A stretch of 64,000 bases of DNA from an uncultured Christensenella sp. (GCA_949290565.1 CASESH010000002.1:928-64927), one strand, 5' to 3'; positions 3,520-53,343 are shown, counted from the first letter of the stretch. Notes: generated by a model not told the origin, from the letters alone. Translations and numbers: made by a program.

Positions 3520-3602
3520 GGCGTACTATTAAAATTTGCTTTTTAAGCAAATTTTAGAAAATATGAAATATTTTCGAGCAACTTGTTGCTCAATAGTACG
3601 CC
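3520..3602. repeat. four-way-junction palindromic element E1
   Basis: Outer stem GGCGTACTATT/AATAGTACGCC; hairpins AAAATTTGCTT/AAGCAAATTTT, GAAAATAT/ATATTTTC, GAGCAAC/GTTGCTC. Confidence 0.9.
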
Positions 3603-3636
3603 GATTAATACAAAAAATATTTTGGGGAAATAGTTA

Positions 3637-6015
3637 ATGGAAAGATATGAAGTAAATAAAAATGTAAATTTAGAATTAGGGTTATCATCTTCACAAGTTA
3701 GTGAGAGGGTAAAAAACAAATTAGAAAACAAAACATACACAAAAACGTCAAAAACATATTTACAAATTTTTGTTTCGAACATTTTTACCTGGTTTAATAT
3801 AATATGTTTTTTAATAGCCGGGGTATTAATTGCTGTTGGCAGTTTTGAAAATATAACTTTCTTACTTATTTTCACTGCAAATTTGCTAATAGGATTAATT
3901 CAAGAGATTAGGGCAAAAAGAATGGTTGACAATATATCTGTTATATATAGCAATCAAGTTGAAGTTTTAAGAGATGGACAAAGGCAAAAAATAAAACTAG
4001 AAAGTGTTGTTGTTGATGATATCTTTTATATAAAAAATGGAGACCAGGTATGTTGCGACTGCGTCATTATTGATGGAAATGTTGAAGTAAATGAGAGTTT
4101 GTTGACAGGTGAAAGTAAGGCAATTAAGAAAACTAATGGAGACACTCTTTTAGGAGGTAGTTTTTTAGTAAGTGGCTCATGTAAAGTTATGGCGGTAAAA
4201 GTTGGCTTAGAAACTTATAGTTCAAAACTCATAAGAAAAGCAAGAGAATTAAAATCTAATCAAAGCGACATATTAAAAACGCTAAATTTTATAATTAAAA
4301 GTATTGGAATAATAATTGTTCCGCTTGGTATTCTTACTTTTTTTGATTTAAAAGCAAATCACGATATTGTCTATGCTATTGAAAAAACTTCTGGTTCTGT
4401 TATAGGAATGATGCCTGTTGGAATGTTTTTACTTACTAGTGTTTCTCTTGTTGTTGGAGTTATAAATCTTGCCAAACACAAGACACTTGTTCAAAATTTA
4501 TACAGTATAGAAATGTTAGCAAGAGCAAATGTATTGTGTCTAGATAAAACAGGAACGCTTACTGATGGAACAATGTCTATAAAAAGTGTTTTACCATTAA
4601 AGTCAAAGACTGATGAGATTTATAAAATTATGCAAAGTTATGTTAGAGCAAACAAGACAGAGAATTCAACTTCAAAAGCATTGGCAAGTTATTTTTGGGC
4701 AGAAGAAAAAGATATTGAAAAACCCCTTAATTTAGTTGAGTTTAGTAGTGAAAGAAAATTTTCTGCTGTTGAATTTAAAAATCTTGGAACATTTATGCTT
4801 GGCGCTCCTGAATTTGTAACAAATAAGTTAGATGATGAGATAAGGGCGACTATTAAAGATTTTACAAAAGAAGGGTATAGAGTTTTACTTCTTTGCAAAA
4901 GTAGAGCAAAAAATATAAGTGAAAAAATCTCAAAAAATAATACTCCTATGGCTTTAATCACTATTGAAGACAATATAAGGCCAGATGCAAAGTCAACTAT
5001 TGAGTGGTTCAATAATAATGATGTTGAGATTAAAATTATTTCTGGCGACAACGTTGACACTGTAAGTAATATTAGTAGAAAAGTAGGAATTAAAAACTAC
5101 GATAAATGTATAAGTCTAGAAAAATTAAGTGATGAAGAAGTGGAGAAAGTTGCTAATGAATATACAGTTTTTGGTAGAGTAACGCCTGAACAAAAGGCCA
5201 TAATCGTTAAGGCTCTTAGAAAAAATGGAAATAAAGTCGCAATGACCGGAGACGGAGTTAATGACATTTTGGCACTTAAAGAATCTGACTGTTCTATTGC
5301 AATGGCAAGTGGAAGCGAAGCAACTAGGAGTTCTAGTAACTTAATTATGCTAGAAAATAACTTTTCTGCAATGCCTTGTATTGTGGCAGAGGGAAGGCGT
5401 GTAATAAACAATATTTCAAAAGCGTCCTCTTTGTTTTTGACTAAAACATTCTTCTCAATTTTCTTGACTATTTTTGTTATTATTTCAACTAAATATGAAT
5501 ATCCTCTACAACCAAATCAAATCTTATTATGGGAAACCTTGTTTATTGGAATACCAGCCTTCTTCTTAGCACTTCAACCAAATAAAGATAGAATAAAAGG
5601 TTCTTTCTTAGCAAGTCTATCTTCTAAGGCTTTACCTGGTGCAATCGTTTTGTTTTTGAGCACAATTGCCTGCTATATTTACTGTAATATAATTAATATG
5701 GAAGAATTAATACCTACTTTGATTTCTTATTCAGTTACTTTTGGGGCTTTCTTTATTTTACTTAATCTTTGCCAACCTTTTGATAAGTACAGAACAATTA
5801 TGTTATTTAGTTTGTTAGGTGTTTGTATTTTAGGTTTTGTAATTATTTCTAATGATTTCTTTAACTATTCAAGTTTAACGCTTGCTAACTATGGTTTCTT
5901 AATTGGCAACTTGGTATTTATTTATCTATCTTACTTGTTATTAAAGTTTGTTTTTGAAAAAATATTTATAACAATAAAGAACAATAAAAAACAAAAGAGC
6001 AAAGAAAATAATTAA
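3637..6015 (+). CDS. cation-transporting P-type ATPase (CtpE-like)
   Basis: TGES, DKTGT, ISGDN and TGDGVND motifs; atypical M4 segment GMMPVG; multiple TM helices. Confidence 0.93.
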   Translation: MERYEVNKNVNLELGLSSSQVSERVKNKLENKTYTKTSKTYLQIFVSNIFTWFNIICFLIAGVLIAVGSFENITFLLIFTANLLIGLIQEIRAKRMVDNISVIYSNQVEVLRDGQRQKIKLESVVVDDIFYIKNGDQVCCDCVIIDGNVEVNESLLTGESKAIKKTNGDTLLGGSFLVSGSCKVMAVKVGLETYSSKLIRKARELKSNQSDILKTLNFIIKSIGIIIVPLGILTFFDLKANHDIVYAIEKTSGSVIGMMPVGMFLLTSVSLVVGVINLAKHKTLVQNLYSIEMLARANVLCLDKTGTLTDGTMSIKSVLPLKSKTDEIYKIMQSYVRANKTENSTSKALASYFWAEEKDIEKPLNLVEFSSERKFSAVEFKNLGTFMLGAPEFVTNKLDDEIRATIKDFTKEGYRVLLLCKSRAKNISEKISKNNTPMALITIEDNIRPDAKSTIEWFNNNDVEIKIISGDNVDTVSNISRKVGIKNYDKCISLEKLSDEEVEKVANEYTVFGRVTPEQKAIIVKALRKNGNKVAMTGDGVNDILALKESDCSIAMASGSEATRSSSNLIMLENNFSAMPCIVAEGRRVINNISKASSLFLTKTFFSIFLTIFVIISTKYEYPLQPNQILLWETLFIGIPAFFLALQPNKDRIKGSFLASLSSKALPGAIVLFLSTIACYIYCNIINMEELIPTLISYSVTFGAFFILLNLCQPFDKYRTIMLFSLLGVCILGFVIISNDFFNYSSLTLANYGFLIGNLVFIYLSYLLLKFVFEKIFITIKNNKKQKSKENN

Positions 6016-6041
6016 CCTCTTTAAATGAAAAAATTTATATT

Positions 6042-6079
6042 GACCTCAGCAATGAAAATTTTTATTGTTGAGGTTTTTT
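6042..6079 (+). terminator. intrinsic terminator after the ATPase
   Basis: ACCTCAGCAATGAAA/TTTTATTGTTGAGGT hairpin plus T-tract. Confidence 0.75.
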
Positions 6080-6213: not shown

Positions 6214-6235
6214 ATCTTATATTAATATTTTAATT

Positions 6236-8813: not shown

Positions 8814-9923
8814 ATGGTTAAAAAAAATAATTTCTTAAGAATTTTTTTAAAAACAATTGCTTTAATTTTAGCGATTATTATTTTAGTCGTAGGTGGCTAT
8901 ATTGTTTATGTTTGCGTTCAATATTACAGAATTGAAGACAATAAAGTTATTACAATTAATAATAATCAATCTAATCTTGTTTCATTAAATCAAGAAATAT
9001 CTATTTCTACCTATAACATAGGTTTTGGCGCATATTCACAAGACTTCTCTTTCTTTATGGACAGTGGTGAAACGTTAGATGGTAAAATACTCCAAGGAAC
9101 AGGAAGCGTTGCTAAAAATTTACAAACTGTTTTAAACAATACCTCCGGAGCCGTTAATGTGATAAAGGAATTGAATACAGACTTTATGTTCTTTCAAGAA
9201 GTTGATGTAAATGCAACAAGAAGTTATTATTACAATCAATATAAGTACATTCAAGATAGTTTTAAGGATTACTCTAATTCAATTTCTATGAATTTTCATA
9301 GCGCCTTCTTAATGTATCCTATTTTTAATCCTCATGGTAAATCAGACGCTGGTATTGTTACTTTAAGTAAGTATAATATCTCAAATGCTGTACGTAGGAG
9401 TTTACCTATTGATGAGAGTTTTCCAAATAAATTCTTTGACCTCGATAGGTGCTTTCAAATTAACTATTTACCGATAGAAAATTCAGATAAACAACTTGTC
9501 CTTATTAATATTCATATGAGTGCTTATGATGAGGGTGGAAAGATTAGAGCAAAACAACTTGAAATGTTAAATTCAGTCTTGAAAGAAGAAAGTCAAAAAG
9601 ATAATTATGTTATAGTTGGTGGAGACTTTAATCATGATATTGCTAATTCAGTTGGGATTTTTCCAACAAATAGAAAACAGCCTGAGTGGGTCTTTCAGTT
9701 GTCTAATGAAGATTTAACAAGCGGCTACTCTTGGGCTTCAAGTCTAAACGCTCCAACTTGTAGGTCTAGTGATACGGGCTATATTCAAGGCGAGTCCTAT
9801 CTTGTTGTTATTGATGGATTTATTGTTTCTTCTAATATAGAAGTTGTTAATGTACAAAATATTGACACTCAATTTATGTTTTCTGACCATAATCCTGCTA
9901 GAATGACTTTTAAATTAATTTAA
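8814..9923 (+). CDS. membrane-anchored endonuclease/exonuclease/phosphatase (EEP) family protein
   Basis: TYNIGF, FQEVD, GGDFN, IDGF and SDHNP motifs; N-terminal TM. Confidence 0.92.
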   Translation: MVKKNNFLRIFLKTIALILAIIILVVGGYIVYVCVQYYRIEDNKVITINNNQSNLVSLNQEISISTYNIGFGAYSQDFSFFMDSGETLDGKILQGTGSVAKNLQTVLNNTSGAVNVIKELNTDFMFFQEVDVNATRSYYYNQYKYIQDSFKDYSNSISMNFHSAFLMYPIFNPHGKSDAGIVTLSKYNISNAVRRSLPIDESFPNKFFDLDRCFQINYLPIENSDKQLVLINIHMSAYDEGGKIRAKQLEMLNSVLKEESQKDNYVIVGGDFNHDIANSVGIFPTNRKQPEWVFQLSNEDLTSGYSWASSLNAPTCRSSDTGYIQGESYLVVIDGFIVSSNIEVVNVQNIDTQFMFSDHNPARMTFKLI

Positions 9924-9944
9924 AAGTTTGTAGTTTTTAATGAG

Positions 9945-10024
9945 GCACTTTGTGCAAAAGTTTCACTTTTGCGTGAAATTTTAATTTCACGGTAAAAATT
10001 GAAAATTTTTACAGCACAAAGTGC
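9945..10024. repeat. four-way-junction palindromic element E2 (reverse arm order)
   Basis: Outer GCACTTTGTGC/GCACAAAGTGC; hairpins AAAAGT/ACTTTT, CGTGAAATT/AATTTCACG, GTAAAAATT/AATTTTTAC; followed by a T-tract. Confidence 0.9.
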
Positions 10025-10165
10025 TTTTTTTATAAACATTTTTGTATAGAATAAGTTTTTTATTTTAATATTTTACAAAATTGATTTTAAAATTCTTCAT
10101 TTAAATCATTTTAATTTAAATAATAAAAACATAAGAATTGAATATAATAAATTAAGGAGGTTGAA

Positions 10166-10651
10166 ATGGAGAAAAAGAAAACTTTAAACAAATCAATATT
10201 TAGTATTTTACTCGCTATTTTTTTGATTGGTATTATATCCTTAATGTTAGGGTGTAACGATGAAAATAATACGCAAAGATTATTTGTCTATAATACAAAA
10301 AATATGACAGATGAGCAAATTACAACTTACTTTTCACAAAGTGTTTTACAAGATGTTAAAGCAGATAATAGAAATAGAACAATCATTATTTATAAGATTG
10401 ATGAAAGTATTCCAGAACAAGCCGAAATCAAATATAAATTATATCAAGGAGAACAAGTTTATGATAACTTAAATCAGTATGTTGATGAAGATGCTCCTGA
10501 TGTTGAAAGAACATTTAAAATAATGATAGGTTGGGATGAAGTCGATTTAAACAAAACTTGGACAGTTGAAATATATTATATGAATGGCGAGCAGAGGGTA
10601 GAACTTGCAAGCACAAACATTTTTGTAGATGCACAAGAATTTACAAAATAG
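10166..10651 (+). CDS. hypothetical lipoprotein
   Basis: Signal peptide with lipobox MLGC; AAGGAGG RBS. Confidence 0.75.
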   Translation: MEKKKTLNKSIFSILLAIFLIGIISLMLGCNDENNTQRLFVYNTKNMTDEQITTYFSQSVLQDVKADNRNRTIIIYKIDESIPEQAEIKYKLYQGEQVYDNLNQYVDEDAPDVERTFKIMIGWDEVDLNKTWTVEIYYMNGEQRVELASTNIFVDAQEFTK

Positions 10652-10751
10652 TAGAAAAACTCTTACTTATAAAAAAAGTAAGAGATTTTTTTAATATTGA
10701 CTTATATTGGTCTTTCTATTATAAATTAGAAAAATAAGAGAGAGTAGTTGT

Positions 10752-10990
10752 ATGAGTGAATTTGATAAAATTTTTGTTATGAAGCCGAGAAAGGTGAGTT
10801 AATTCAAATTTGCGATGTTTTAAAGAGATTGGACGAATATAAACAGTTGGGAGTTAAATCTCCAAGAGGTATAATTTTGGAAGGTGTTCCTGGTGTTGGA
10901 AAAACGTTAATGGCTTGGTCGTTTATTAAAGAGAGTAAGTTAAAGTATTTTCATTGCAAAAAAGATAATACTATTTTTGTATTATCTTAG
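10752..10990 (+). pseudogene. FtsH-like AAA ATPase fragment, frameshifted and truncated
   Basis: MSEFDKIF, frameshift, then YEAEKGELIQICDVLKRLDEYKQLGVKSPRGIILEGVPGVGKTLMA (Walker A); runs into the duplicated tRNA terminator. Confidence 0.85.
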
Positions 10991-11028
10991 TTTTTGGTGG
11001 AGGGTCTTAGGACTCGAACCCTGGACCC
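10958..11028 (-). repeat. direct duplicate of the tRNA-Lys 3' half plus its terminator (att-like)
   Basis: AAAAAAGATAATACTATTTTTGTATTATCTTAGTTTTTGGTGGA...GGACTCGAACCCTGGACCC is repeated at 11161-11230. Confidence 0.9.
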
Positions 11029-11197
11029 GGGTAAAAACATTCGCTTATGTCTATTTGCTAAACGCAAAATAGGACTTTAACGCTCAGTTTTTACTTTTAT
11101 CTCAAAAATTTCACTTCGTTGCTATTTTTGAGAACTCTATCAGTGGGTCCATATTAATAAAAAAAAGATAATACTATTTTTGTATTATCTTAGTTTT

Positions 11198-11273
11198 TGG
11201 TGGACGACCAGGGACTCGAACCCTGGACCCACTGATTAAGAGTCAGTTGCTCTACCAACTGAGCTAGTCGTCC
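11198..11273 (-). tRNA. tRNA-Lys(CTT)
   Basis: GGACGACTAGCTCAG...CTGAC-TCTTA-ATCAG...GGTTCGAGTCC...GTCGTCCACCA. Confidence 0.96.
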
Positions 11274-11527
11274 AAATATGAATTATACATTTTTCTAATT
11301 TAAGTTTATTGATATTTTAAATTTCATTTTTAAATAAACTTATTTTTTTTATTTAAAATAACAAAATGTCATTAAAAACATTTTTTATTTTAATACGATT
11401 GTTTTAACTTGTCAACAATTATTTATTTTTTGTTAGTAAACTGATTTAAATTATTTCATTTAGTTTTACTTATTTTAATTTTATTGCTATCATATTATTA
11501 TATTAATTTATTGTGATTATGTGAGAA

Positions 11528-12286
11528 ATGGATACCACGAAGGAAAAAAGAAAAAATATTATTATTTTAGTTAGTTTAATTTTGTGCTTGTTTTTTATAA
11601 CAACTTTTTTGTTGTCATATAAGGTTTTTGGAGAGAAACTTGTAAATACAAAAAACGATGAAAATAAAATTGTTATAACACAAGATTTTGATTTATCAAC
11701 CTCTTTTACTGATGATTTTAGCGGAAATTATATTTTGACTATAACAGGTACTATTAAAAATTTAACTGACGATGATTTAGAAAATGTTGAGTTAACTGTC
11801 GATTTAAAAACAACCTTTTTTAATAAAAGACAATCTATTATTATTAAAATTAATAATATTGAAGAAGATGAAGAATATAACATTAATGAAAGTTATATTG
11901 TTGAAGATAATTATAGTAAAATTGAAAATGTTTCTATTAAGTTTAGAAATGGAAGCGAATTTAATTTGCAAAAATACTCAAATGTTTTGTTCAGAAATCC
12001 TATTACGATTCTTTCTTTAATTTTACTTGTAGTTTCATTTATTATCTTTATTTCAATGATTGTTAATAAAGAAACAGATAAGGCAAGAAGTAAATATAAA
12101 AAAGTGGAACAAAGTAAAAAAAATGTAGGAACTTTTTTTGACTTAAAGTTAGAATTAGAAAAAGAAAAAATGGAAAACGAACTTAAAGAGTTGAGAAATG
12201 AAAAATATATAATTTGTGAATACTGTGGAAACAAAAATAATGTTGATGATAAAAAATGTTCTTCTTGTGGAGCAATTCTTAAATAA
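11528..12286 (+). CDS. membrane protein with extracellular domain and C-terminal zinc ribbon
   Basis: Two TM helices; CEYC...CSSC at the C-terminus. Confidence 0.75.
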   Translation: MDTTKEKRKNIIILVSLILCLFFITTFLLSYKVFGEKLVNTKNDENKIVITQDFDLSTSFTDDFSGNYILTITGTIKNLTDDDLENVELTVDLKTTFFNKRQSIIIKINNIEEDEEYNINESYIVEDNYSKIENVSIKFRNGSEFNLQKYSNVLFRNPITILSLILLVVSFIIFISMIVNKETDKARSKYKKVEQSKKNVGTFFDLKLELEKEKMENELKELRNEKYIICEYCGNKNNVDDKKCSSCGAILK

Positions 12287-12339
12287 AATTCTTTTAAAAA
12301 AATATTTACTTATTTTATCATTTAATCTATTATATTAAT

Positions 12340-12876
12340 ATGAGAATTATTTCAGGTAAGTTTCGTGGGTTAGCAATTCCTTCTCCAAAAGAAATAATTG
12401 TTAAACCAACACTAGATAGAATTAAAGAAAATATTTTTAATATTATTCAGTTTCGAGTGAAAAATAGTAAATGTTTAGATTTGTTTTGCGGAAGCGGAGC
12501 CTTAGGAATTGAATGTATTAGTAGAGGCGCTTCTTTTGTTGATTTTGTAGACAACAATAGTCACAACATAAACAACTTAAAAACTTTTTTGCAAAAAATC
12601 AATGTAGAAGATTATGAGTTACATAATTTAGATTATTATGATGCTTTAAAAGGTTTTAATGATAAAAATAAAAAATTTGATATAATTTTTTTAGACCCTC
12701 CTTATGACAGTAACCTTGCCTTTTTATCAATTCAAAAAATTTTTAAGTTTGATTTATTAAGTGAAGATGGAATAATTATTTTTGAACATCAAATAAATTA
12801 TGAAAATAAATATTTAAGTAAAGTTTATGATAGTAGAAAATATGGTAATATTCAAATTGATTTCATAAAAAAATAA
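12340..12876 (+). CDS. rsmD: 16S rRNA m2G966 methyltransferase RsmD
   Basis: MRIISGKFRG, LDLFCGSGALG, FLDPPY and RKYG. Confidence 0.93.
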   Translation: MRIISGKFRGLAIPSPKEIIVKPTLDRIKENIFNIIQFRVKNSKCLDLFCGSGALGIECISRGASFVDFVDNNSHNINNLKTFLQKINVEDYELHNLDYYDALKGFNDKNKKFDIIFLDPPYDSNLAFLSIQKIFKFDLLSEDGIIIFEHQINYENKYLSKVYDSRKYGNIQIDFIKK

Positions 12877-12898
12877 TATCATATTTACATTTTATTAA

Positions 12899-12988
12899 GG
12901 GCTATGTGCGAAAAGTTATCTTTTCTATGAAGTTTAATTTTTAAACTTCATTGTAAAAATTTTAAAAAATTTTTACAGCACATAGCCC
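12899..12988. repeat. four-way-junction palindromic element E3 (reverse arm order)
   Basis: Outer GGGCTATGTGC/GCACATAGCCC; hairpins GAAAAG/CTTTTC, ATGAAGTTTAA/TTAAACTTCAT, TGTAAAAATTTT/AAAATTTTTACA. Confidence 0.9.
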
Positions 12989-13078
12989 ACAAATTGAGAT
13001 ACAATATATTTAATCTAAAAATAATTGAGATAATTATTTAAGTAAAAATGTTAAGATATAAAATAAAGGAAAAGAAAA

Positions 13079-15493
13079 ATGTTAGAAAAGAAATATGATT
13101 TTAAAACAAAAGAAAAGTTTTGGCAAGACTATTGGCAAAAAGAAAATATTTACAAATTTAATGAAAACTCATCAAAGCCAATATTTTCAATTGATACTCC
13201 TCCACCAACGGTTAACGGAAAAATTCATATAGGACATATTTTTAGTTATTCCCAAGCAGAATTTGTAGCAAGATACAAGAGAATGATGGGTTATAATGTT
13301 TTTTATCCATTTGGATTTGATGATAACGGACTTCCAACAGAATTGCTTGTTGAAAAAGAAAAAAACTTAAAAGCATATACTGTTTCACGTGAAGACTTTA
13401 CAAAAATGTGTCTTGATACAGTTGAAAAGTATGAGGAAGAATTTAAAAAACTTTTTATATCGGTTGGCAACAGTGCTGATTGGAGTTTGCTTTATCATAC
13501 TGTAAGTCCAGAAAGTCAAAAGGCAAGTCAAAAATCATTTTTAGAGTTGTATAAAAAAGGACAAGTATATTATTCATTTGCTCCTGCATTATGGTGTACG
13601 AAATGTCAAACTGCAATTGCACAAAGTGAATTAGAGAGTCAAGAAAAAGATAGTAGTTTTAATTATTTAAAGTTTTACATACAAGACAGCGACGAATTTA
13701 TTGAAATTGCAACAACAAGACCAGAATTATTATGTGCTTGTGATTGTATTTTTGTAAATCCAAAAGATGAAAAGAATATTCATTTGATAGGAAAAAAAGT
13801 TTTGGTTCCATTATATAATTTTTATGTTCCTGTATTAAGCGATGACAAAGTAGATTTAGAAAAGGGAACCGGCGTAGTAATGTGCTGTACATTTGGAGAC
13901 CAGACAGACACTCAATGGTTTAAAAAGTATAAGTTAGAATTAAAAGTTGCTATTGACGACTTCGGAAGAATGACCGAAATTGCAGGGAAATACGCTGGTT
14001 TAAAAGTCAAAGAAGCAAGAAATCAAATTATACAAGACTTAAAAGACAGTAATTTATTAATAAAACAAGAACCAATTAAACACCAAGTTTCTGTCCATGA
14101 GAGATGTGGCAATGAGATGGAAATAAAATTAAAAAAACAATGGTTTATAAAAACGGTCGAGAATAAAGAAAAGTGGTTAGAACTTGGTAGTAAAATTAAT
14201 TGGTATCCATCATTTATGAGGTCTAGATATGATGATTGGGTAAAAAATTTAATGATGGATTGGTGTATTTCTAGACAAAAATATTTTGGAGTTCCATTTC
14301 CTGTATGGTACTGTAAAGACTGTGGAGAAATTATTGTTGCTAACGAAGAAGATTTACCAATCAACCCTTTGACAACTAATCCAAAGTCACCTTGTCCAAA
14401 ATGTGGAAGTAAGAATTTTGAACCGGAAAAAGATATTTTGGATACTTGGGCAACAAGTAGTATAACTCCTCAAATAAATACTAGATGGGCTTATAATCAA
14501 AACTTTTATAAAAAAATGATGCCAATGTCTTTAAGACCAAATGCTCACGATATTATTAGAACTTGGGATTTTTATACTATTGTTAAGTCATTTTATCATT
14601 CAAACACAATTCCTTGGGAAAATGTTATGATTAGTGGATTTGTGCTTGCTAGTGCTGGGCAAAAGATGTCAAAGAGTAAGAGCAATGCAAAGACTGACCC
14701 ATTGGAATTAATTAATAACAACTCTGCTGATGTTATTAGATATTGGACTGCAACGGGCTCTCTTGGAAAAGACATCTTGTTTAGTGAGGACAAGTTTAAA
14801 ATTGGTGCAAGGCTTGTAAATAAATTATATAACGCATCTAAATTTGTTTGGTTATTTATTGAAAATTATGAGCCGGATTGTAAAACAAAATTATTGCCAC
14901 TTGATAAGTGGATTTTATCAAAATTTAGTCAAATGTCAAAAAAATTTAGAAATTATTTTGACAAGTATGAAGTTGGACTTGCTATGAACGAATTAGAATC
15001 TTTCTTTTGGAATTTTTGTGATAATTATATTGAACTTGCCAAGGTTAGACTATATAATCCTGAAATTTATGGTCAGGAAGCAAAAAAAAGTGGACAATTT
15101 GCGATTTACAATGTATTGCTTGAAACATTAAAAATGTTTGCCATTTATCTCCCACACATTACTGAGGAGATATATCAAAATACATTTAGAGATAGTTTAA
15201 AAGTAAAAAGTATTCACTTGCTTGAATTTGCTAAGCCTATTATTGATGAAGATATACAATTAATTAAGAATGGCGATGAAGTTTGTAGTATAGTTTCGCA
15301 GGTAAGAGGTTTTAAGACAGACAATAAGATTAGCCTTAAAACAAAACTTGAAAGAGCAGTAATAACGACTAATAATATTGATTTTGTTAAATCTTGCGAA
15401 AGTGATATAAAAGATGCGACAGGAATTATTAATATTAAGTATGAAAAAGGTGATAATTCTCAAATACAAGTTGAAGGTATTTTGGAAGATTAA
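13079..15493 (+). CDS. valS: valyl-tRNA synthetase (short, archaeal-like type)
   Basis: IDTPPPTV, HIGH, GFDDNGLPTE, DWCISRQ and KMSKS; 804 aa without a C-terminal coiled-coil arm. Confidence 0.95.
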   Translation: MLEKKYDFKTKEKFWQDYWQKENIYKFNENSSKPIFSIDTPPPTVNGKIHIGHIFSYSQAEFVARYKRMMGYNVFYPFGFDDNGLPTELLVEKEKNLKAYTVSREDFTKMCLDTVEKYEEEFKKLFISVGNSADWSLLYHTVSPESQKASQKSFLELYKKGQVYYSFAPALWCTKCQTAIAQSELESQEKDSSFNYLKFYIQDSDEFIEIATTRPELLCACDCIFVNPKDEKNIHLIGKKVLVPLYNFYVPVLSDDKVDLEKGTGVVMCCTFGDQTDTQWFKKYKLELKVAIDDFGRMTEIAGKYAGLKVKEARNQIIQDLKDSNLLIKQEPIKHQVSVHERCGNEMEIKLKKQWFIKTVENKEKWLELGSKINWYPSFMRSRYDDWVKNLMMDWCISRQKYFGVPFPVWYCKDCGEIIVANEEDLPINPLTTNPKSPCPKCGSKNFEPEKDILDTWATSSITPQINTRWAYNQNFYKKMMPMSLRPNAHDIIRTWDFYTIVKSFYHSNTIPWENVMISGFVLASAGQKMSKSKSNAKTDPLELINNNSADVIRYWTATGSLGKDILFSEDKFKIGARLVNKLYNASKFVWLFIENYEPDCKTKLLPLDKWILSKFSQMSKKFRNYFDKYEVGLAMNELESFFWNFCDNYIELAKVRLYNPEIYGQEAKKSGQFAIYNVLLETLKMFAIYLPHITEEIYQNTFRDSLKVKSIHLLEFAKPIIDEDIQLIKNGDEVCSIVSQVRGFKTDNKISLKTKLERAVITTNNIDFVKSCESDIKDATGIINIKYEKGDNSQIQVEGILED

Positions 15494-15533
15494 TAAAGTA
15501 ATAAATATTTATATAACAACATAAAATATGATA

Positions 15534-15616
15534 TAGGCAGGTGTTGATAAAATTTTGTAAAAATTTTATCAAAATTATTTTATAATTTTGGCAAGATTCT
15601 TGCAAACACCTGCCTA
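15534..15616. repeat. four-way-junction palindromic element E4
   Basis: Outer TAGGCAGGTGTT/AACACCTGCCTA; hairpins GATAAAATTTT/AAAATTTTATC, AAAATTAT/ATAATTTT, GCAAGA/TCTTGC. Confidence 0.9.
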
Positions 15617-15632
15617 GTCTAAAAATAAATAG

Positions 15633-15660
15633 TTGACATAAGAAAAATAATGACTATAAT
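15633..15660 (+). promoter_or_regulatory. sigma-A promoter of tRNA-fMet
   Basis: TTGACA-N16-TATAAT. Confidence 0.75.
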
Positions 15661-15675
15661 AGAAAATGTTTTTGA

Positions 15676-15751
15676 CGCGGAGTGGAGCAGTTGGAAGCTC
15701 GCCGGGCTCATAACCCGGAGGTCGTAGGTTCGAGTCCTACTTCCGCAACCA
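15676..15751 (+). tRNA. initiator tRNA-fMet(CAT)
   Basis: C1:A72 mismatch, GGG/CCC in the anticodon stem, CAT anticodon, CCA end. Confidence 0.96.
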
Positions 15752-15857
15752 ATTTAAAAGAGATTATTTATAATCTCTTTTTTTATTTAAAAAAATTGAC
15801 ACTACTTTTTGATTTATCATGTTTACTAGTTCTAAAATTAAGTTGTAGGAGGTAAAT

Positions 15858-17813
15858 ATGGATAAATTAGAATACATTCTAGAAAAAATTTCTCAGTTAT
15901 TTAGTGAAATGACAGATGTAAGATATTCTTTGAAGAGTTTTTCAAATCCAACTGAAATAATTACACAAATTGACAACATAGAAAATACACTGACTACCAA
16001 TTTAAGTGAGGTACAACAGTTAAAGAATAGTTTACAACAACTTAATCAAACAGTTAGCAGTATAGATACCGAAGGCATAATAAATGATATAAATAAAAAT
16101 GCTTCGGATATAGTGAATTTAACAAATAATTCAACTACTTTTCAAAATTCAATAACAAATCAAGTTAATAGTTTAGAAACAAGTTTTAACAATAATTTAA
16201 CAAACTTACAAAATGGATTAATTGAAGATATTAATGAAGTAGAAACAAATTTGACCAATACAATAAATTCCACTGAGACCTTGCTAACAGAACAAATTAA
16301 TCAGGTAGAAGATAATACACTGTCAGCAATAACTGAGATTGAAAATGGGGTAGCTGATTCAATAGCGACAATAACACAGCAAATAGATAATAAGGTTTTA
16401 AGTTCACAAAATACTTTAAATGCAAAGATTGAAAGTGTAGAAGATAGTGTAACGTCACAAATAACAACTTTAACACAAAACTTAACAAACTTAGATGAAG
16501 AATTAAGTCAAAGCATCAACAATACAACTACAAGTCTTACTCAGCAGATAGAGAATGTAAACAATAGTTGTACAGCATCAATAACAACTCTCTCACAAGA
16601 CTTAGAAGATAATGTTTCTGCTTTGCAGACAAGCATATCACAAAATACAACAAATTTAAGTACACTAGAACAGTCAACTACGCAATTTAAAAACAGTGCA
16701 AATCAAGCGATAAATACTTTAAACACTAAGGTAGAAAATTTAGATTCTCAAAATCTATCTGATAGAATTACATCAAACGACTTAGATATTACAAATTTAC
16801 TTTTTAGTACCAATCAACTTAATTCTACATTCAACAGTTTTAAACAGGAAGTACAAAATCAAATAAATAAAATAAATTCAAACAAGAATATTTTAATTAA
16901 TCCAAACTTCAAAGTTAACCAAAATGGGAAAACTCTTTATAGAAGAATGGCTAACGATAATGAAATGTTTTATACTGTTGATATGTTTGCTTCGGCAGCG
17001 GGAACTCTTGAAGATAATGAATTTGATTTAACACATTTGTCAACGGGAGGAATAAAAATTAAAGGATATGGTGAATGTGACTTTTTACAAATTATAGAAA
17101 ATGGTAAGAATTTATATTTAAATAAACCATTAAGCCTTTCAATAAGTGTTGACGGAACAATTTATACAAAAGAGAATTTTAGTGTAACAACCAATGGTAT
17201 TCAATCTTTAACTTTTCCAAAGGGTTCAGTTCACGTAATTAACAGTGGAGACATTTTTAAGTGTGTGTTAAAAGCAAATGCTAATACGGAGTTTGTAGTA
17301 AATTGGTGGAAGTTAGAAGAAGGCGAAAAAGTTACTCCATTTGTTGAGCCCAAAGAGGAGGAAGAATTTCTTAAATGTTCAAGATATTATACAGTTTTAA
17401 GAACTGTGCCAAACGATATACAACTAAATGATTATCTCACGACATTTTGCCAAGTTGTAGAATTTTACAAACAAGATGGAATTGCATATCCTTGTTTTTT
17501 TAAAACAAGGTTTTCGTTTGATTTACCAACCGAAATGAGAACTTTTCCAAAACTAAAATACTTTTCAAACTTTAAAATATTTAACACTAGGAGTGGTGAA
17601 TACGAGTATGCCTATAGTTTTATGGAATTTGTTCCAGATTCAAAATATAATAACGATGGAGTTAGAGTTATATCTTATCAAAAGAATAGAATTTTTATTG
17701 AAGGTTATTTCTATGTTTTAGATGAAGCAGGAATAGGAGATATAGGAACATATACGCAATTATTAAGCAGAGAAAATGTTTATCTTCATTTTGATGCAAA
17801 CTTATATGAATAA
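15858..17813 (+). CDS. coiled-coil protein with phage tail-fibre-like C-terminal domain
   Basis: About 330 aa of N/T/Q/S-rich helical repeats, then NILINPNFKVNQNG and KLEEGEKVTPF...FLKCSRYY; AGGAGG RBS. Confidence 0.7.
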   Translation: MDKLEYILEKISQLFSEMTDVRYSLKSFSNPTEIITQIDNIENTLTTNLSEVQQLKNSLQQLNQTVSSIDTEGIINDINKNASDIVNLTNNSTTFQNSITNQVNSLETSFNNNLTNLQNGLIEDINEVETNLTNTINSTETLLTEQINQVEDNTLSAITEIENGVADSIATITQQIDNKVLSSQNTLNAKIESVEDSVTSQITTLTQNLTNLDEELSQSINNTTTSLTQQIENVNNSCTASITTLSQDLEDNVSALQTSISQNTTNLSTLEQSTTQFKNSANQAINTLNTKVENLDSQNLSDRITSNDLDITNLLFSTNQLNSTFNSFKQEVQNQINKINSNKNILINPNFKVNQNGKTLYRRMANDNEMFYTVDMFASAAGTLEDNEFDLTHLSTGGIKIKGYGECDFLQIIENGKNLYLNKPLSLSISVDGTIYTKENFSVTTNGIQSLTFPKGSVHVINSGDIFKCVLKANANTEFVVNWWKLEEGEKVTPFVEPKEEEEFLKCSRYYTVLRTVPNDIQLNDYLTTFCQVVEFYKQDGIAYPCFFKTRFSFDLPTEMRTFPKLKYFSNFKIFNTRSGEYEYAYSFMEFVPDSKYNNDGVRVISYQKNRIFIEGYFYVLDEAGIGDIGTYTQLLSRENVYLHFDANLYE

Positions 17814-20263: not shown

Positions 20264-20360
20264 AAACACGTGTGTTAGAATTTTGCAAAAACAAAATTCT
20301 AACAAGTAAAATTTATAAATAAATTTTACTTTCAAAAATAATAATTTTTGACACGTGTTT
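20264..20360. repeat. four-way-junction palindromic element E5
   Basis: Outer AAACACGTGT/ACACGTGTTT; hairpins GTTAGAATTTTG/CAAAATTCTAAC, AAGTAAAATTTA/TAAATTTTACTT, CAAAAAT/ATTTTTG. Confidence 0.9.
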
Positions 20361-20742
20361 TTTTATACAATACAACTTATACAATACAACATAACGATAT
20401 AACCTAACAACACAAATATATAAAAAAATTTTGATAAAAATAAAAATTTATTTAGTTTGAAATTTATAATTTTAGTTTATTATTTTAAATTTTTTATTAA
20501 AATGCAACAAGAAATTAGACTTTTATATTTACATTTTTAAACTAAACTAAAAAAGGGAATATACAAAAAGTATAAGTCCCTTTTACAAATAAAATATTTA
20601 ACTTTTCTTTAATTTGTTCTTAATAAGATTGAAAATATTTATAAACAACTAACAAAATTTGGCCAAATATAAATTTAAGAAAAAGTAAGTGAAAACTAAC
20701 GAATTAGAAAAATTAAACAAAATAAAACAAGTAAGTTTTGTT

Positions 20743-35882: not shown

Positions 35883-35959
35883 GCGAACAAATAAATTTAA
35901 CTTGTTAAATTTAAAATACTAGCGTATTTTTGCTAAGTGAAACTTAGCAATTTGTTCGC
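35883..35959. repeat. four-way-junction palindromic element E6
   Basis: Outer GCGAACAAAT/ATTTGTTCGC; hairpins AAATTTAAC/GTTAAATTT, AAAATAC/GTATTTT, TGCTAAGT/ACTTAGCA. Confidence 0.9.
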
Positions 35960-45506: not shown

Positions 45507-47009
45507 TTATGTAATGCTTAAATTTTCACTTTTTGTCTTTTTTGTAAATTTATTTTCTAATGTGATTAGTCTATCATAGTTTTGTTTTATATTTTCCAAA
45601 CAAAGATTACTACTTTGTTTAAAATCTAAATATTGCTTTTTTTCGCCATTTGAAATAAAAAATAAAGAATTATTTTTGTCAAATCCGACAACTAAAATTT
45701 CTTTATTTTTTTTATTATCAAGCACTGTTATTTGCCATAAATCATTTTTAATTTTAGTTGTTGATATTAAACATTCATTAGAGAGTCTTTGTTGCATTTG
45801 TTGAACATAATTTGATAAACTAAGTTCCAAATTGATTGGCCTATTATCTTTATAACTAAACATAATTTGACCATTTTGTTTTTGTTTAAATGTGAAATTA
45901 TTACTAAAAGATTGAGATAAAAAAGCATTTGATTTATAAAGTAAAATTCCTGAAATAACATTTTTTATTAATTTAGTAAATTCTATGGAGTCTTCGCTAT
46001 CATTTTCAAAATGATTGTTAGAATATGAAGAAATCATTTGGTTTACTAAATTAGAATAATCATAATAATTTGTATCTAATTTATTTCTTCTTTCGTTTTG
46101 TGAAAACTGTAAAAACGCAGAAGATATTTTTATTATTTGCTCCAAAGAAAAATATTCAGGATTTTGACAAACTTTTTGACATGTAATATTACATATAAAA
46201 TCTATTATTTTTTTATAATTAAGATTTTGTAAGTAATCAATTCTATAATTTAAATCAAACTCTTTTTGAAAATTACTACAAAGTTTATAAAGATTTTTTA
46301 AGTTATCTTCTCCAAAAAAATTACAATGATTTGTTAATTCTCCTTGTAAAAACTCAACATTATTTATATTTCCGCCATTGATTTCATTTAAAAAATTAAT
46401 TATTGTTGTTTGAGGTTTATATACATTAAAATCCTCATTATTGTCTTTGACTTTTTGTGCAATAAGTTCGGTGTAACCTTCATCAAAAAAGGAACTGTCT
46501 ATTAAATAGTAAGTCTTTGCATCTTCAATTTCACCTGTAACTAAATTTATTTTTTTACATTCCTTTTTTCTTTCTTGTCCCTGCTGTTTTTTTATTTCTA
46601 ATTTTTGTCCATTTTGTAATATTTGTAAATAATCCATGCTTCTTTTTAAACAATGCAACATTTCGTGAGTAATTACTTTTTCTAAAAGTTTGCTATCTTT
46701 TAGTAAGAAACTTTTTATTAAAATAAAATTAATATCATTAACATTTGTGTAACAAGCGTTATAGTGTTCATTCATTTTCTTTAATGTATTGTCATTTATT
46801 AGCAATACAAATTTATTATCTAATAAGTTTTTAATAACCTTATAATAATTTATTTGTTGGTAAACCTCCATTTTACAAAAAAGGTCATCTAAGTTATTAA
46901 TTACATTTTTCAAAGCGTTTTGTAATATTTCTTTTTGTTCGTCATCGCAAATGAAGTGTACTAAATTTAATTTTGAGTTTAAAATTTGTAGAGGTGATTC
47001 CATAATCAT
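45507..47009 (-). CDS. hypothetical protein with HExxH zincin-like motif
   Basis: ITHEMLH followed by FFDEGYTE; AGGAG RBS. Confidence 0.65.
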   Translation of the reverse strand: MIMESPLQILNSKLNLVHFICDDEQKEILQNALKNVINNLDDLFCKMEVYQQINYYKVIKNLLDNKFVLLINDNTLKKMNEHYNACYTNVNDINFILIKSFLLKDSKLLEKVITHEMLHCLKRSMDYLQILQNGQKLEIKKQQGQERKKECKKINLVTGEIEDAKTYYLIDSSFFDEGYTELIAQKVKDNNEDFNVYKPQTTIINFLNEINGGNINNVEFLQGELTNHCNFFGEDNLKNLYKLCSNFQKEFDLNYRIDYLQNLNYKKIIDFICNITCQKVCQNPEYFSLEQIIKISSAFLQFSQNERRNKLDTNYYDYSNLVNQMISSYSNNHFENDSEDSIEFTKLIKNVISGILLYKSNAFLSQSFSNNFTFKQKQNGQIMFSYKDNRPINLELSLSNYVQQMQQRLSNECLISTTKIKNDLWQITVLDNKKNKEILVVGFDKNNSLFFISNGEKKQYLDFKQSSNLCLENIKQNYDRLITLENKFTKKTKSENLSIT

Positions 47010-49393: not shown

Positions 49394-49400
49394 TAAAGCA

Positions 49401-49522
49401 CCATAGAGAGTATGCGAGGGACAAGCCCGTTGACCATACACCAACCTACAAATTTTGCAAGGTGGTAATACTTGTTTGATGGGATTATAGTTCATTAAAG
49501 CCCATCTATGATGGGCTTTTTT
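49401..49522 (+). promoter_or_regulatory. SAM-I (S-box)-like riboswitch variant with terminator
   Basis: CCAUA-GAGA-GUAUG-CGA-GGG-ACAAG-CCC-GUUGAC-CAUAC-A-CCAACC...AGGUGG-UAAUA-CUUG-UUU-GAUGG, then terminator AAAGCCCAUC/GAUGGGCUUU-UUU. Confidence 0.85.
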
Positions 49523-50722: not shown

Positions 50723-50927
50723 AAGTTTTTTTATTTTACTATATAGAATAAATTTTTGCAACACTTATTTTTAAATTTTTTACAAGAATAAAATTATAAT
50801 TCACTGATTTTATTTAGAAACAGTTTTCTAATTTTTTAGTTACAAATTCTTTATAAAAAAATTAAATAAAAAAATTATTAAAATTAAATTTACTAGTTGG
50901 TAAATTTTTTTATTTAAAATGAAATAT

Positions 50928-51437
50928 TTATATATAAAACTTTACAACTGAACCAAAATTTGTATTTACGTAATTAATCTTTTGAGTTTTAGGAATTTTA
51001 TTGATATATGTATTCAAGGCATAAAAAGTAGAGTTGTGTCCTACAATAATGACAGTGTTTAATTCTTTGCTTTTTTCAAAAATTTTTTCAAAACCTGAAA
51101 AACATCTATCAATAAAATTTCTACACGTTGTGAAGTTTGTGTTTTTATATGCGTAATTAAAATAATTTTCTTTAAAATCTTCTGCGTATAGTTTTTCTTG
51201 ATCTAATGTAAGTTGTTCTCTTTCATCAAATTCTTTCCAAATTAAAAGTGGAGCCTTAAATTTCTTATTTAAAATATTTGCCGTTTGTAGTGTGCTAGTT
51301 TGCGGGGAACAAAATATGCAATCGACTTTTTCTTGTTTAATATAACTAAGTGAATTTTTGATTTGTAGATAGCCAAGCATATTAAGTTTATTAGTTTTTA
51401 AGTTTGTTTTTCCGTGTCTAATAAAAATAATTTTCAT
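50928..51437 (-). CDS. histidine phosphatase family protein
   Basis: FIRHGKT, FCSP, FDER and IVGHN. Confidence 0.85.
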   Translation of the reverse strand: MKIIFIRHGKTNLKTNKLNMLGYLQIKNSLSYIKQEKVDCIFCSPQTSTLQTANILNKKFKAPLLIWKEFDEREQLTLDQEKLYAEDFKENYFNYAYKNTNFTTCRNFIDRCFSGFEKIFEKSKELNTVIIVGHNSTFYALNTYINKIPKTQKINYVNTNFGSVVKFYI

Positions 51438-51461
51438 AACAATGATTTTCCTCCTCCTTTA

Positions 51462-52190
51462 TTAGATAAAGAAGATAAAAGAAGAAATTATAATTTGCGC
51501 TAGATAATAAAAGGCGTGATTTATTATAATTAAAGTTTTATCTTTTTCTTTATCTCCAAAGTATTGCAAAGAGAGAATTAAGTCAGAAATTAAAAACATA
51601 ACAAATCCAATTGCTAAAATATAGGTTGGAATCGTTGTTATTATAAATGATGAGTAAATCGCAAGAATGGTTGTAAATATTAAAATAAAAGAATAAATAT
51701 TAACTAAAATAGTAAAATTTTCATAGTTTAGTTTAAGAAGTTTTTTAGAAACAAAATAAATAATTATGGCTAGTATAATTGACGAAATAAAAATAATAAA
51801 AACAGGAATCAAATGATATTTTAGTAAACTTTCATAAGGAGAGGCAATCAAGAATATACCTGCAATATAGAATAAATGACCTATTAAAAAAGAAGTTATT
51901 CCAGCATAGAGATATTGATTTTTATGAAAGTGGTACATAACCTTTAAATCAAGAATTATATCTCCAATAAGTCCACACAATAAGCCAAATATAATCATTG
52001 TAATTGATAGAGATGTAAATTGATTTGAATCAGACTTATTTAAATAGAGTACAAGAGCAAGGGCTACAAAACAAAAAGAGGCAACTATTTTAGATATTAA
52101 ACCATAAGTTTCACCTTTTTTTACTCTCAAACATATAAAAACACAGGATGTAATTAAACACAAAATTATACCACTTATTAAATAAATCAT
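51462..52190 (-). CDS. YhhN/lysoplasmalogenase family membrane protein
   Basis: SKIVAS, GLIGDIIL, FLIGH, FLISD and YYLAQ. Confidence 0.85.
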   Translation of the reverse strand: MIYLISGIILCLITSCVFICLRVKKGETYGLISKIVASFCFVALALVLYLNKSDSNQFTSLSITMIIFGLLCGLIGDIILDLKVMYHFHKNQYLYAGITSFLIGHLFYIAGIFLIASPYESLLKYHLIPVFIIFISSIILAIIIYFVSKKLLKLNYENFTILVNIYSFILIFTTILAIYSSFIITTIPTYILAIGFVMFLISDLILSLQYFGDKEKDKTLIIINHAFYYLAQIIISSFIFFI

Positions 52191-52277
52191 CTTTTACCCC
52201 TTTTTTATAAATATACTAATTATAAAGTTTTTAGTAAAAAAATCAAAACATTATTAACAATTTTAAAAGGAAAAGTT

Positions 52278-53255
52278 ATGAAAAAAATTAAAGTTGCTAT
52301 TTTAGGTTATGGAAATTTAGGAAAGAGTCTAGAAGAATTAATTTTGAAAAACGAACTTTTTGAATTAATTGGAATTTTTTCAAAAAGAAGAAATTTAAAA
52401 AGTAAATTTAATACTTCAATTTTTAATCTTAACAATTTACAAATCTATTCAAATAAAATTGACATTGTTTTTGTTTGTCAAGGTAGTTATAATGGTGTAG
52501 AAAATTTAAGTTATAAACTAATTGAAAACTTTAATTTTGTTGATAGTTTTGATACTCATAAAAAACTAAAAAATTATATAAAAAGGTTAGATAAAAAGTC
52601 AAAAGTTTATGGAAAAGTTTGTCTCTGTGCCTTTGGTTGGGACCCGGGTTTATTAAGTTTATTTAGATTGTTATTTTATGCTATTTCTGGTGAAAAAATC
52701 TTTTCAAACTGTTTTTGGGGAGAGGGAGTTAGTCAAGGACATAGTAACGCAATTAGACAAATTAAAGGCGTTAAAAATGCGATACAATATACCGTTCCAA
52801 TTACCAAACAAATCGAAAAGTGTAGAAAAGAATTTAATTTTTTTCCATCCGAATTTGAAAAACATTTAAGAATTTGTTATGTTTCTACTTTTGATTTTGC
52901 AAATAAAATACAAATTGAAAATGAAATAAAAAATATGAAAAATTATTTTCAAGGATATGAAACTGTCGTTCATTTTGTAAATGATGAAGAGGTTGTCAAA
53001 AGACAAAAATCACTATCTCATAGAGGGCTAGTGATTTCAAATTATAAAATTTTAGATAAATACAATACTAAATTGGAATTTAGTTTAGATATACAAAGCA
53101 ATCCCTATTTTACGGCACAAGTTATGATTATGGGAGCAATGGCTGTTAGTTATTTAGTTAAAGAAAAAAAATTTGGTGCATATTCCATTTTTGATTTGCC
53201 AACAAAATACTTTGTTAATTTTACAAAAAAAGATTTGAATGGTTTTTTATTGTAA
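52278..53255 (+). CDS. ddh: meso-diaminopimelate D-dehydrogenase
   Basis: GYGNLG, VDSFDTH, GWDPG, FWGEGVSQGHS and SNPYFT. Confidence 0.93.
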   Translation: MKKIKVAILGYGNLGKSLEELILKNELFELIGIFSKRRNLKSKFNTSIFNLNNLQIYSNKIDIVFVCQGSYNGVENLSYKLIENFNFVDSFDTHKKLKNYIKRLDKKSKVYGKVCLCAFGWDPGLLSLFRLLFYAISGEKIFSNCFWGEGVSQGHSNAIRQIKGVKNAIQYTVPITKQIEKCRKEFNFFPSEFEKHLRICYVSTFDFANKIQIENEIKNMKNYFQGYETVVHFVNDEEVVKRQKSLSHRGLVISNYKILDKYNTKLEFSLDIQSNPYFTAQVMIMGAMAVSYLVKEKKFGAYSIFDLPTKYFVNFTKKDLNGFLL

Positions 53256-53265
53256 TTTTAGTAGA

Positions 53266-53343
53266 GGGAATTTGTCGCAAAATTTTAGAAAAATTTTGAA
53301 AAATCTTTGATTTTTAGCAAGTTACACTTGCCGACAAATTCCC
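53266..53343. repeat. four-way-junction palindromic element E7
   Basis: Outer GGGAATTTGTCG/CGACAAATTCCC; hairpins CAAAATTTT/AAAATTTTG, AAAAATC/GATTTTT, GCAAGT/ACTTGC. Confidence 0.9.

Follow-up and report, generated by a model that had tools for sequence, protein, structure and literature searches.

Small palindromic repeats, among them repetitive extragenic palindromes (REPs) and miniature inverted-repeat transposable elements (MITEs), shape the structure of bacterial genomes and the expression of genes. The families that are known consist either of simple hairpins or of units defined by their sequence, and they are linked to a transposase that can be recognised. A REP is a single short imperfect palindrome, a REPIN consists of two inverted REPs that form one long hairpin, and the REP/REPIN-RAYT systems belong to Proteobacteria. 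The BOX, RUP, ERIC and Correia elements measure about 100 bp, lie scattered between genes and have strong predicted secondary structure; their effects vary with position relative to genes. Here we describe a family of dispersed repeats represented by seven elements (E1 to E7) in a stretch of 64,000 nucleotides from an uncultured Christensenella sp. (GCA_949290565.1 CASESH010000002.1:928-64927; hereafter the window, with positions counted from its first letter). In every copy a closing stem surrounds three small hairpins, giving a perfect four-way junction. In kind the family is closest to REP/MITE-like repeats, and its form is unusual: the perfect four-way junction is constant, the number of arms is fixed, and there is no identifiable partner enzyme. 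Aspects of such repeats are covered in two reviews (PMC2229807, PMC3184786; used here in part), and at the level of abstracts the literature yielded no dispersed bacterial repeat in the form of a four-way junction or cloverleaf, which is not proof of absence.

Junctions were sought with our own descriptor scanner, which accepts only perfect Watson-Crick stems, with a closing stem of ≥7 bp around N abutting hairpins of ≥5 bp and gaps of ≤2 nt. The scan covered the genome that carries the window (G000; 951,692 bp in 44 contigs, 27.3% G+C) and 769,907 bp of a sister species of the same genus (G014; about 1.1 Mb). In the window, where G+C content is 22-34%, the scan with N = 3 returned exactly the seven elements, with 34-42 pairs each, plus one weak match of 22 pairs (45654-45716). 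The weak match has arms of only 5 bp, lies inside an open reading frame (45507-47009, minus strand) and falls within the range of shuffled sequence; it is not counted as a member. Other arm numbers gave one weak two-arm match and no four-arm match. Each of the seven has a closing stem of 9-12 bp around exactly three abutting perfect hairpins, at precisely the coordinates listed in the initial annotation of this DNA. RNAfold reproduced the closing stem and three abutting hairpins on both strands of all seven elements (minimum free energy -24.6 to -40.7 kcal/mol). The same structures were obtained with single-stranded DNA parameters (z = -7.2 to -11.9), and none of 200 shuffles per element folded as well. 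The elements are as follows, with bit scores from R1, a covariance model of the sub-family to which E2 and E3 belong (sub-family A, described below), and with neighbouring genes of E1 named from Pfam.

E1, 3520..3602, no strand assigned: closing stem 10 bp, arms 12, 8 and 7 bp, DNA-fold z = -10.1; set between the stop of a TetR-family gene, 8 nt upstream, and the start codon of a P-type ATPase gene, 34 nt downstream; R1 36.8 bits on the minus strand; arm cores in common with E4 and E7.
E2, 9945..10024, plus strand: sub-family A; closing stem 10 bp, arms 7, 9 and 9 bp, T7 tail, z = -8.1; downstream of an Exo_endo_phos-family gene whose stop is 21 nt away; R1 74.1 bits on the plus strand.
E3, 12899..12988, plus strand: sub-family A; closing stem 11 bp, arms 6, 11 and 12 bp, z = -11.9; between an rsmD-like gene and leuS; R1 95.1 bits on the plus strand.
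E4, 15534..15616, no strand assigned: closing stem 12 bp, arms 11, 8 and 6 bp, z = -9.9; between leuS, which stops 40 nt upstream, and a tRNA-Met gene 59 nt downstream; R1 42.8 bits on the minus strand; arm cores in common with E1 and E7.
E5, 20264..20360, no strand assigned: closing stem 9 bp, arms 13, 12 and 8 bp, z = -11.4; between convergent genes, with T4 on one side; R1 41.2 bits on the minus strand.
E6, 35883..35959, no strand assigned: closing stem 9 bp, arms 10, 6 and 9 bp, z = -7.2; downstream of a nucleoside hydrolase gene whose stop is 14 nt away; missed by R1 at E ≤ 0.001; aligns with E1, E4 and E7.
E7, 53266..53343, no strand assigned: closing stem 12 bp, arms 9, 7 and 6 bp, z = -9.6; fills most of a 123-nt spacer between a DAP dehydrogenase gene and a convergent gene of 880 aa; R1 40.8 bits on the minus strand.

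All seven begin shortly after a plus-strand stop codon, at distances of 8, 21, 22, 40, 33, 14 and 10 nt for E1 to E7, and a T-tail is present at E2 and E5 only; both statements of the initial annotation held. Its suggestion of two orientations was borne out as well, R1 scoring best on the plus strand for E2 and E3 and on the minus strand for E1, E4, E5 and E7. The elements are neither tRNAs nor members of an Rfam family: ARAGORN placed five tRNAs in the window, all outside the elements, and the six Rfam matches at the gathering score were the same five tRNAs and a SAM riboswitch. Permissive Rfam scans of E3, E4 and a composite repeat from another member of the genus (described at the end) gave only sub-threshold microRNA and snoRNA noise, and a known RNA family was rejected for them.

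Across the whole of G000 the scanner found 16 three-arm elements with 30-42 perfect pairs. There was no match with N = 2 and ≥28 pairs, the single match with N = 4 was an alternative parse of one of the 16, and N = 5 gave none. When the whole genome was shuffled 25 times in 300-nt blocks with dinucleotides preserved, a mean of 0.08 elements with ≥28 pairs was found per genome and the best shuffle reached 30 pairs. Sixteen observed against 0.08 expected corresponds to a Poisson p of about 1e-31. The initial annotation had named this comparison as a check on whether AT-rich intergenic DNA yields such junctions at similar frequency. It does not, chance junctions are ruled out by the shuffles, and the family is confirmed as real and far beyond chance. 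A relaxed census of G000, in which a perfect closing stem of ≥8 bp was required and the interior was allowed to fold freely (3854 seeds), gave no convincing extra member; the two-arm relatives that it returned were AT-rich noise, and four-arm variants were all alternative parses of three-arm elements. The earlier estimate of about one element per 9 kb holds for this contig, which carries 7 of the 16 elements (p = 7e-5), but not for the genome, where there is about one per 60 kb. In G014 the same scan found 74 perfect three-arm junctions, one independent two-arm junction and no independent four- or five-arm junctions. Units of the family are 70-106 bp long.

The seven copies are less unlike one another than had been thought. 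E2 and E3, described initially as the only visibly related pair, belong to a sub-family (A) with six copies in G000, the other four being on other contigs. Its common segments are a closing stem GGnTTTGTGY, an arm CAAAAGT/ACTTTTG and an arm GTAAAAATTT/AAATTTTTAC, and the six copies aligned with two from the closest relative have a mean column identity of 76%. E1, E4, E6 and E7, together with two G014 copies, can be aligned through three arm cores (TAAAATTT, AAAATA and GCAAG); here the closing stems differ, and the mean column identity of 58% is suggestive only. Most closing stems start with G/C and have a TGTG-like core. Given six copies of the E2/E3 sub-family in this genome and at least 94 loci in the sister species, the original picture of near-complete covariation among unrelated sequences was overstated, and the sequences make the family look like one lineage of repeats of different ages. 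The description of a dispersed, shape-defined intergenic family, with no Rfam or tRNA identity, was upheld.

The pairing within the elements is close to perfect, with Watson-Crick pairs making up 98-99% of it. In an alignment of eight sequences, compensated double changes were present at 16 of the 38 pairs and there were no one-sided changes. Among 2025 pairs in 52 distinct copies only 21 were G-U, mostly at the edges of the junction. In a model-fitted alignment of 85 matches, which contains both strands of many loci and was fitted to the structure, 98.4% of 3012 cells were standard pairs, all 37 pairs had double changes, and 607 double-changed cells stood against about 8 one-sided ones; none of 500 shuffles and no slid-partner control approached these values. 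All three sets thus agree with the Watson-Crick, strand-symmetric pairing first noted for the window. The loops are minimal. In 90 perfect elements 250 of the 270 hairpin loops were 1-4 nt long, 71 of the 270 were only 1-2 nt, and junction gaps were 0-2 nt. Loops also occur in both senses: the arm-1 loop was TTC in 20 copies and its reverse complement GAA in 5, and AAA in 4 and TTT in 2. The tips of arms 2 and 3 vary among copies in length and sequence yet stay palindromic. Because pairing is Watson-Crick and strand-symmetric and the loops are minimal and invertible, the pattern in these sequences points to a process at the level of DNA. Template switching between short imperfect inverted repeats is described, in those parts of three reports used here, as homogenising the arms, inverting the spacer and at times expanding the repeat (PMC8604942, PMC13100816, PMC7202029). 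The homogeneous arms, inverted spacers and expanded arms seen here would be such outcomes of polymerase template switching.

The architecture is genus-wide at low copy with unrelated-looking sequences, enriched in G000 and present as a burst in G014. Genomes of the genus were searched with R1 at E ≤ 1e-4, the counts in each resting on 150 scored candidates, so that the G014 figures of at least 130 matches at at least 94 distinct loci are lower bounds. Elsewhere in the genus R1 matched twice in G016 and once in G013, an earlier draw of genomes giving a similar result, and at this threshold there was no match in 24 of the 27 other genomes. Direct scanning found one perfect junction in 400 kb of G008 and one in 394 kb of G003, the latter with one more on another contig by the model; both genomes' junctions were of unrelated-looking sequence. 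The family is shown to be restricted to one genus of reduced-genome gut Clostridia, in one species of which it has expanded about 100-fold. Among 80 leuS loci taken from genomes (593,822 bp) there were three junctions, two in L001, which are the same elements as in G014, and one in L074; at leuS the 79 other genomes had none. A further 80 leuS loci from metagenomes (859,779 bp) contained none, and the best LeuRS identity there was 76%, so that no closer strain was found. The L074 junction (1762-1846) has 37 perfect pairs of unrelated sequence and comes from a distant relative (LeuRS 53% identical, locus 38% G+C); it hints that the architecture reaches beyond the genus. No plasmid matched the elements by blastn. 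A phage origin was rejected, the single pattern match to a viral contig being a chance one in a GC-rich contig of 1.6 kb. In G014, three junctions lie in tandem within 400 bp (C21:22760-23163, also L130:2760-3163) and five lie within 4.2 kb.

Comparison of G000 with G014 showed both retained and lineage-specific copies. For 24 of 45 G014 elements both flanks lie on one G000 contig, where the G000 spacers are much shorter, and alignments showed that G000 has no element at many sites orthologous to G014 elements. Conversely, nine G000 elements had both flanks mapped onto G014 contigs, and a junction was present in the same spacer at five of the nine, compared to 23% of spacers occupied overall (p = 0.04). 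E3 and C44:29130 are homologous throughout to their counterparts and differ from them by compensated changes, C30:41532 has only the closing-stem core in common with its counterpart, and the G014 intervals orthologous to E2 and E5 hold a junction of another sub-type. Four sites (E1, E4, E7 and one on C22) have no junction in the mapped G014 interval, and no remnant was seen in the G014 spacers orthologous to E1 and E7.

The G014 copies are also oriented. Relative to local GC skew, sub-family copies were split 64:15 over 79 loci (p = 2e-8), and an independent set from four later-added contigs gave 32:9 (p = 4e-4). On contig C21 the skew changes sign at about 71-85 kb, dnaA lies at 78752-79246, and the orientation of the elements flips there; C21:71000-85000 is likely to be a replication origin. 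The contig of the window shares synteny with C21:20-65 kb, which probably places the window near the origin; the dnaA of G000 itself is carried by a different contig, C34. The few G000 copies had no skew-linked orientation bias. With respect to co-directional flanking genes the orientation was 44:12.

All elements are intergenic by simple ORF-based calls, and their positions are not random. In G000, 12 of the 16 lie ≤40 nt from the stop of a gene reading towards them, compared to 16.5% for random placement (p = 4e-7), and in G014 10 of 36 do so, compared to 12% (p = 0.01). Divergent spacers were under-used (4 of 50 elements, 19% expected; p = 0.03). T-tracts, scored as TTTT within 9 nt, followed 4 of 21 sense-strand tails in G000, which equals the intergenic background of 18%, while simple hairpins had them in 50 of 147 cases; in G014, 15 of 39 sense-strand tails had one. 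E1, with the distances given above, is almost certainly transcribed through. Thus the G000 copies are not ordinary terminators, as had been concluded from the window. Sub-family copies are bordered by A-rich sequence on one side and T-rich sequence on the other. Apart from this bias the borders revealed no conserved tetranucleotide or pentanucleotide that might mark a cleavage site, and none of 41 oriented flank pairs had a target-site duplication. Some short words recur nearby. Words of the form (T)ACTACAACTA are about 6-fold enriched ≤45 nt from G014 elements on C10, C21 and C32, and CAACTA occurs in 14 of 90 G014 flank segments (2.4 expected), G000 being without such enrichment. Short C/A-rich tandem repeats of the CTAACTA, CTAACAA and ATACAAC types stand directly downstream of several elements (G000 C22:55524-55553, C4:3621-3650 and C13:7818-7847; window 20361-20400).

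The initial annotation had proposed, as the first of its candidates, a REP/REPIN-like substrate of an HUH nuclease, and had suggested looking for a RAYT/TnpA(Y1) gene flanked by the elements. A Y1 HUH transposase gene (PF01797) is indeed present in G000, with one full copy (C4:37-393; L136) and fragments at four contig ends (C9:25808-25951, C6:5300-5362, C36:14366-14428 and C41:5-88). Copies at several contig ends indicate that this IS200-type element is multi-copy and breaks the assembly. Its locus is a classic IS200 unit, with an upstream GC-rich hairpin, a second stem over the ribosome-binding site and GC-rich hairpins downstream; these end hairpins are imperfect and unlike the junction arms, and no junctions flank the gene. 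The single Y1 copy of G014 (C28:586-942) has an in-frame TAA. Within the genus Y1 was present in 7 of 28 genomes, five of which have no sub-family match, while G016 and G013 have matches and no Y1 (Fisher p = 0.25). The candidate therefore fails where it can be tested: the enzyme is IS200-type with unrelated ends, its gene is interrupted by a stop in G014, where the burst took place, and its distribution does not follow that of the elements. Searches of five genomes found no IS110-type gene and only TnpB-type matches below the family cut-off. Tyrosine recombinases were present in all five genomes regardless of element load and are hence uninformative. A gene sandwiched by two elements in G014 was rejected too, as it codes for ordinary membrane proteins.

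How the family compares with described systems can now be set out. It resembles REPs and REPINs, as far as the accounts of these used here extend, in being made of short intergenic palindromes that are non-autonomous, lack target-site duplications and often stand just after genes, and also in vertical inheritance, long persistence and a copy number that varies between lineages. The repeats here are likewise intergenic, multi-copy, lineage-specific and vertically persistent, with orthologous copies retained. They differ in folding as a four-helix junction, in the absence of a flanked single-copy RAYT (the Y1 here being IS200 and multi-copy in G000) and in their host, a Firmicute of 27% G+C. IS608-type elements have an orientation linked to the direction of replication. 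The family shares with IS200/IS605 elements and their miniature derivatives the lack of target-site duplications and of DDE-type terminal inverted repeats, the need for folded hairpins and a replication-linked orientation, which in our case (64:15) is confounded with gene direction. The arms of the junctions, as perfect palindromes, are unrelated to the subterminal hairpins of the resident IS200, which are imperfect, and no conserved cleavage motif was seen at the borders; an IS200/IS605-derived miniature element was rejected on these ends. A classical DDE-derived MITE, with terminal inverted repeats, a target duplication and a parent insertion sequence bearing the same ends, was also rejected: inverted repeats could be read into the closing stem, but target duplications were absent from the flanks, and neither an IS110-type gene nor a TnpB-type match above the cut-off turned up (other DDE families were not searched). 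Dispersal between genes, a length of about 100 bp and a strong predicted fold are common to the BOX, RUP, ERIC and Correia elements and to this family. Those repeats, however, have conserved sequence, terminal inverted repeats, mismatched stems and usually a target duplication, whereas here the perfect four-way junction is constant and sequence is conserved only within sub-families. Intrinsic terminators, stable G+C-rich hairpins with a U-tract directly behind them on the sense strand, are similar in the G+C-rich base of the stem, in the position just after stop codons and, in G014, in the T-tracts. As a class they were rejected for the background level of T-tracts in G000; moreover, the "loop" would be some 60 nt of three extra hairpins, and E1 stands in an operon-like spacer.

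Two further systems were compared. The inverted terminal repeat (ITR) of adeno-associated virus (AAV) is a long stem enclosing two small palindromes; it exists in flip and flop forms and is recognised as folded DNA by an HUH protein. Nested perfect palindromes in two reverse-complement arrangements are a point of likeness, matched here by the two orientations and the loop flips. The AAV ITR, however, forms a three-way junction that terminates a linear viral genome, while the present elements are four-way, scattered in a bacterial chromosome, and no Rep gene was identified. An integron attC site is a single imperfect hairpin with extrahelical bases and core sites, found behind gene cassettes near an integron integrase. 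It was rejected as a candidate, the stems here being perfect, branched and without extrahelical bases and the neighbours housekeeping genes (leuS, rsmD); core-site motifs were checked by eye only.

The reading that we favour, and to which we would give about an even chance of being right, is that of a REP/MITE-like mobile palindrome copied by way of folded single-stranded DNA at the replication fork, with template switching keeping its stems perfect. The unit is one palindrome nested around exactly three smaller ones, its closing stem is clamped by G+C, and either of its strands can fold into a perfect four-way junction. New copies would arise from a folded single-stranded intermediate at the fork, through an enzyme other than the resident IS200-type transposase, and would persist mainly just 3' of stop codons, where a hairpin-like insert may be tolerated. 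Polymerase template switching inside each palindrome would homogenise the halves of the stems and invert the loops. Under such upkeep old copies would drift in sequence yet stay perfectly paired, and this drift would make the elements look divergent in sequence but conserved in structure. The 3' ends of mRNAs may be affected secondarily, though the data can be explained without it. A bolder form of the proposal is that the elements are substrates of an undescribed bacterial DNA transaction, mobile or domesticated, in which a Holliday-junction-like fold of single-stranded DNA and not a sequence is the identity of the element, with copying or use at the fork by a structure-specific enzyme, host-encoded or unrecognised, and upkeep by template switching; we consider this doubtful.

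Several observations weigh against the favoured reading. No mobilising enzyme was found in the searches for Y1, IS110, TnpB and tyrosine recombinase genes. Template switching is inferred from the patterns rather than observed. The orientation bias is confounded with gene direction: only six loci are discordant between the two, they split 4:2, and three of the four in the majority sit in one tandem cluster, so that gene direction and replication direction are inseparable as causes. There is no base-exact pair of filled and empty sites, the spacers of G000 and G014 being too diverged and no closer strain having been found. Exactly three arms, the G+C clamp, the closeness to stop codons and the conservation of the E3 ortholog look like functional constraint; that ortholog (G014 C21:51061-51152, also in L001) is clearly better conserved than its flanking spacer. 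Lastly, the gene calls come from a simple longest-ORF caller.

Functional constraint could act on RNA or on DNA, and neither role is mutually exclusive with a mobile palindrome. As an RNA module, the element would be a stable 3'-end or intercistronic structure that blocks 3' exonucleases, sets processing sites or attenuates read-through, its fold being maintained by selection on the RNA. The concentration of the G000 copies behind stop codons, their depletion from divergent spacers and the G+C-clamped closing stem are what such a module would show, as are the A-rich and T-rich flanks and T-tracts of G014 and the conserved E3 ortholog. We nevertheless think it unlikely. RNA stems normally tolerate G-U pairs, which are almost absent here; more than a quarter of the loops are too short, at 1-2 nt, to close an RNA hairpin; and loops and whole elements occur in both orientations. 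Moreover, T-tracts in G000 are at background, a full terminator is excluded at E1, which lies inside one presumed transcript, and a burst in one species with near absence in its congeners is unlike a housekeeping RNA signal. Selection on shape in DNA would apply if the palindromes formed Holliday-junction-like structures as a host site for HU-type proteins, topoisomerases, or proteins of replication restart or recombination. The strict four-helix junction with its minimal gaps, the perfect strand-symmetric pairing that cruciform extrusion requires, the persistence of the architecture at low copy with unrelated sequences across members of the genus, the replichore-dependent orientation and the location of 7 of the 16 G000 elements on a contig syntenic to the origin-proximal part of C21 are all in keeping with such a site. 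Against it, the analysis brought up no candidate protein, conservation of position stops at the sister species (no junction at leuS in the 79 other genomes or the 80 metagenome loci), and congeners differ in copy number, with about 1 per 400 kb at one extreme and 1 per 10 kb at the other, which would be odd for an essential site. The halves of the closing stem, some 60 nt apart, would also disfavour simple extrusion. Taken together we judge a host site improbable.

A REP/RAYT-type system in which the junctions are substrates of the genome's own HUH Y1 transposase can draw on the PF01797 gene in both G000 and G014, and on the absence of target-site duplications and the replication-linked orientation, which fit HUH single-strand transposition. 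It is very unlikely in view of the unrelated GC-rich terminal hairpins of the IS200-type Y1, the lack of flanking junctions, the in-frame stop in G014 and the distribution of Y1 among genomes. Hardly credible, finally, is the view that there is no element at all and that nested palindromes arise de novo by template-switch mutation in AT-rich spacers or as assembly artefacts. Template switching can create and extend palindromes, according to those parts of the literature used here, and the genome is poor in G+C (27%). Yet shuffled genomes hold almost none, the arm number is strictly three, sequence sub-families are common to several genomes, and the same elements appear in independently assembled genomes. 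In addition, at least 81% of the words sampled from window positions 9500-17500 occur in five DNA sequencing runs from three studies.

If the favoured reading is true, the family would be a natural system for asking how template switching keeps palindromes perfect over evolutionary time, and a starting point for finding a structure-specific DNA enzyme or binding protein of uncultured Clostridia. In AT-rich metagenome-assembled genomes such elements also interrupt or mislead assembly and the prediction of terminators, and they provide sharp strain markers.

Three further observations were made. The start of leuS is only 90 nt after E3 (window 12989-13078) with no T-box leader by Rfam, which is unusual for leuS of a Firmicute. 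In two species one junction sub-type forms part of a 177-bp composite repeat, the upstream part of which is a conserved module of some 70 nt with an imperfect hairpin and no Rfam match; the loci are L092:1431-1607 and L098:1431-1607 in G016 and L130:2914-3014, L127:19560-19661 and L127:5584-5682 in G014. The SAM riboswitch of the window (S-box, RF00162; 50.3 bits, above the gathering score) lies at 49398-49493 on the plus strand, upstream of a short plus-strand ORF.

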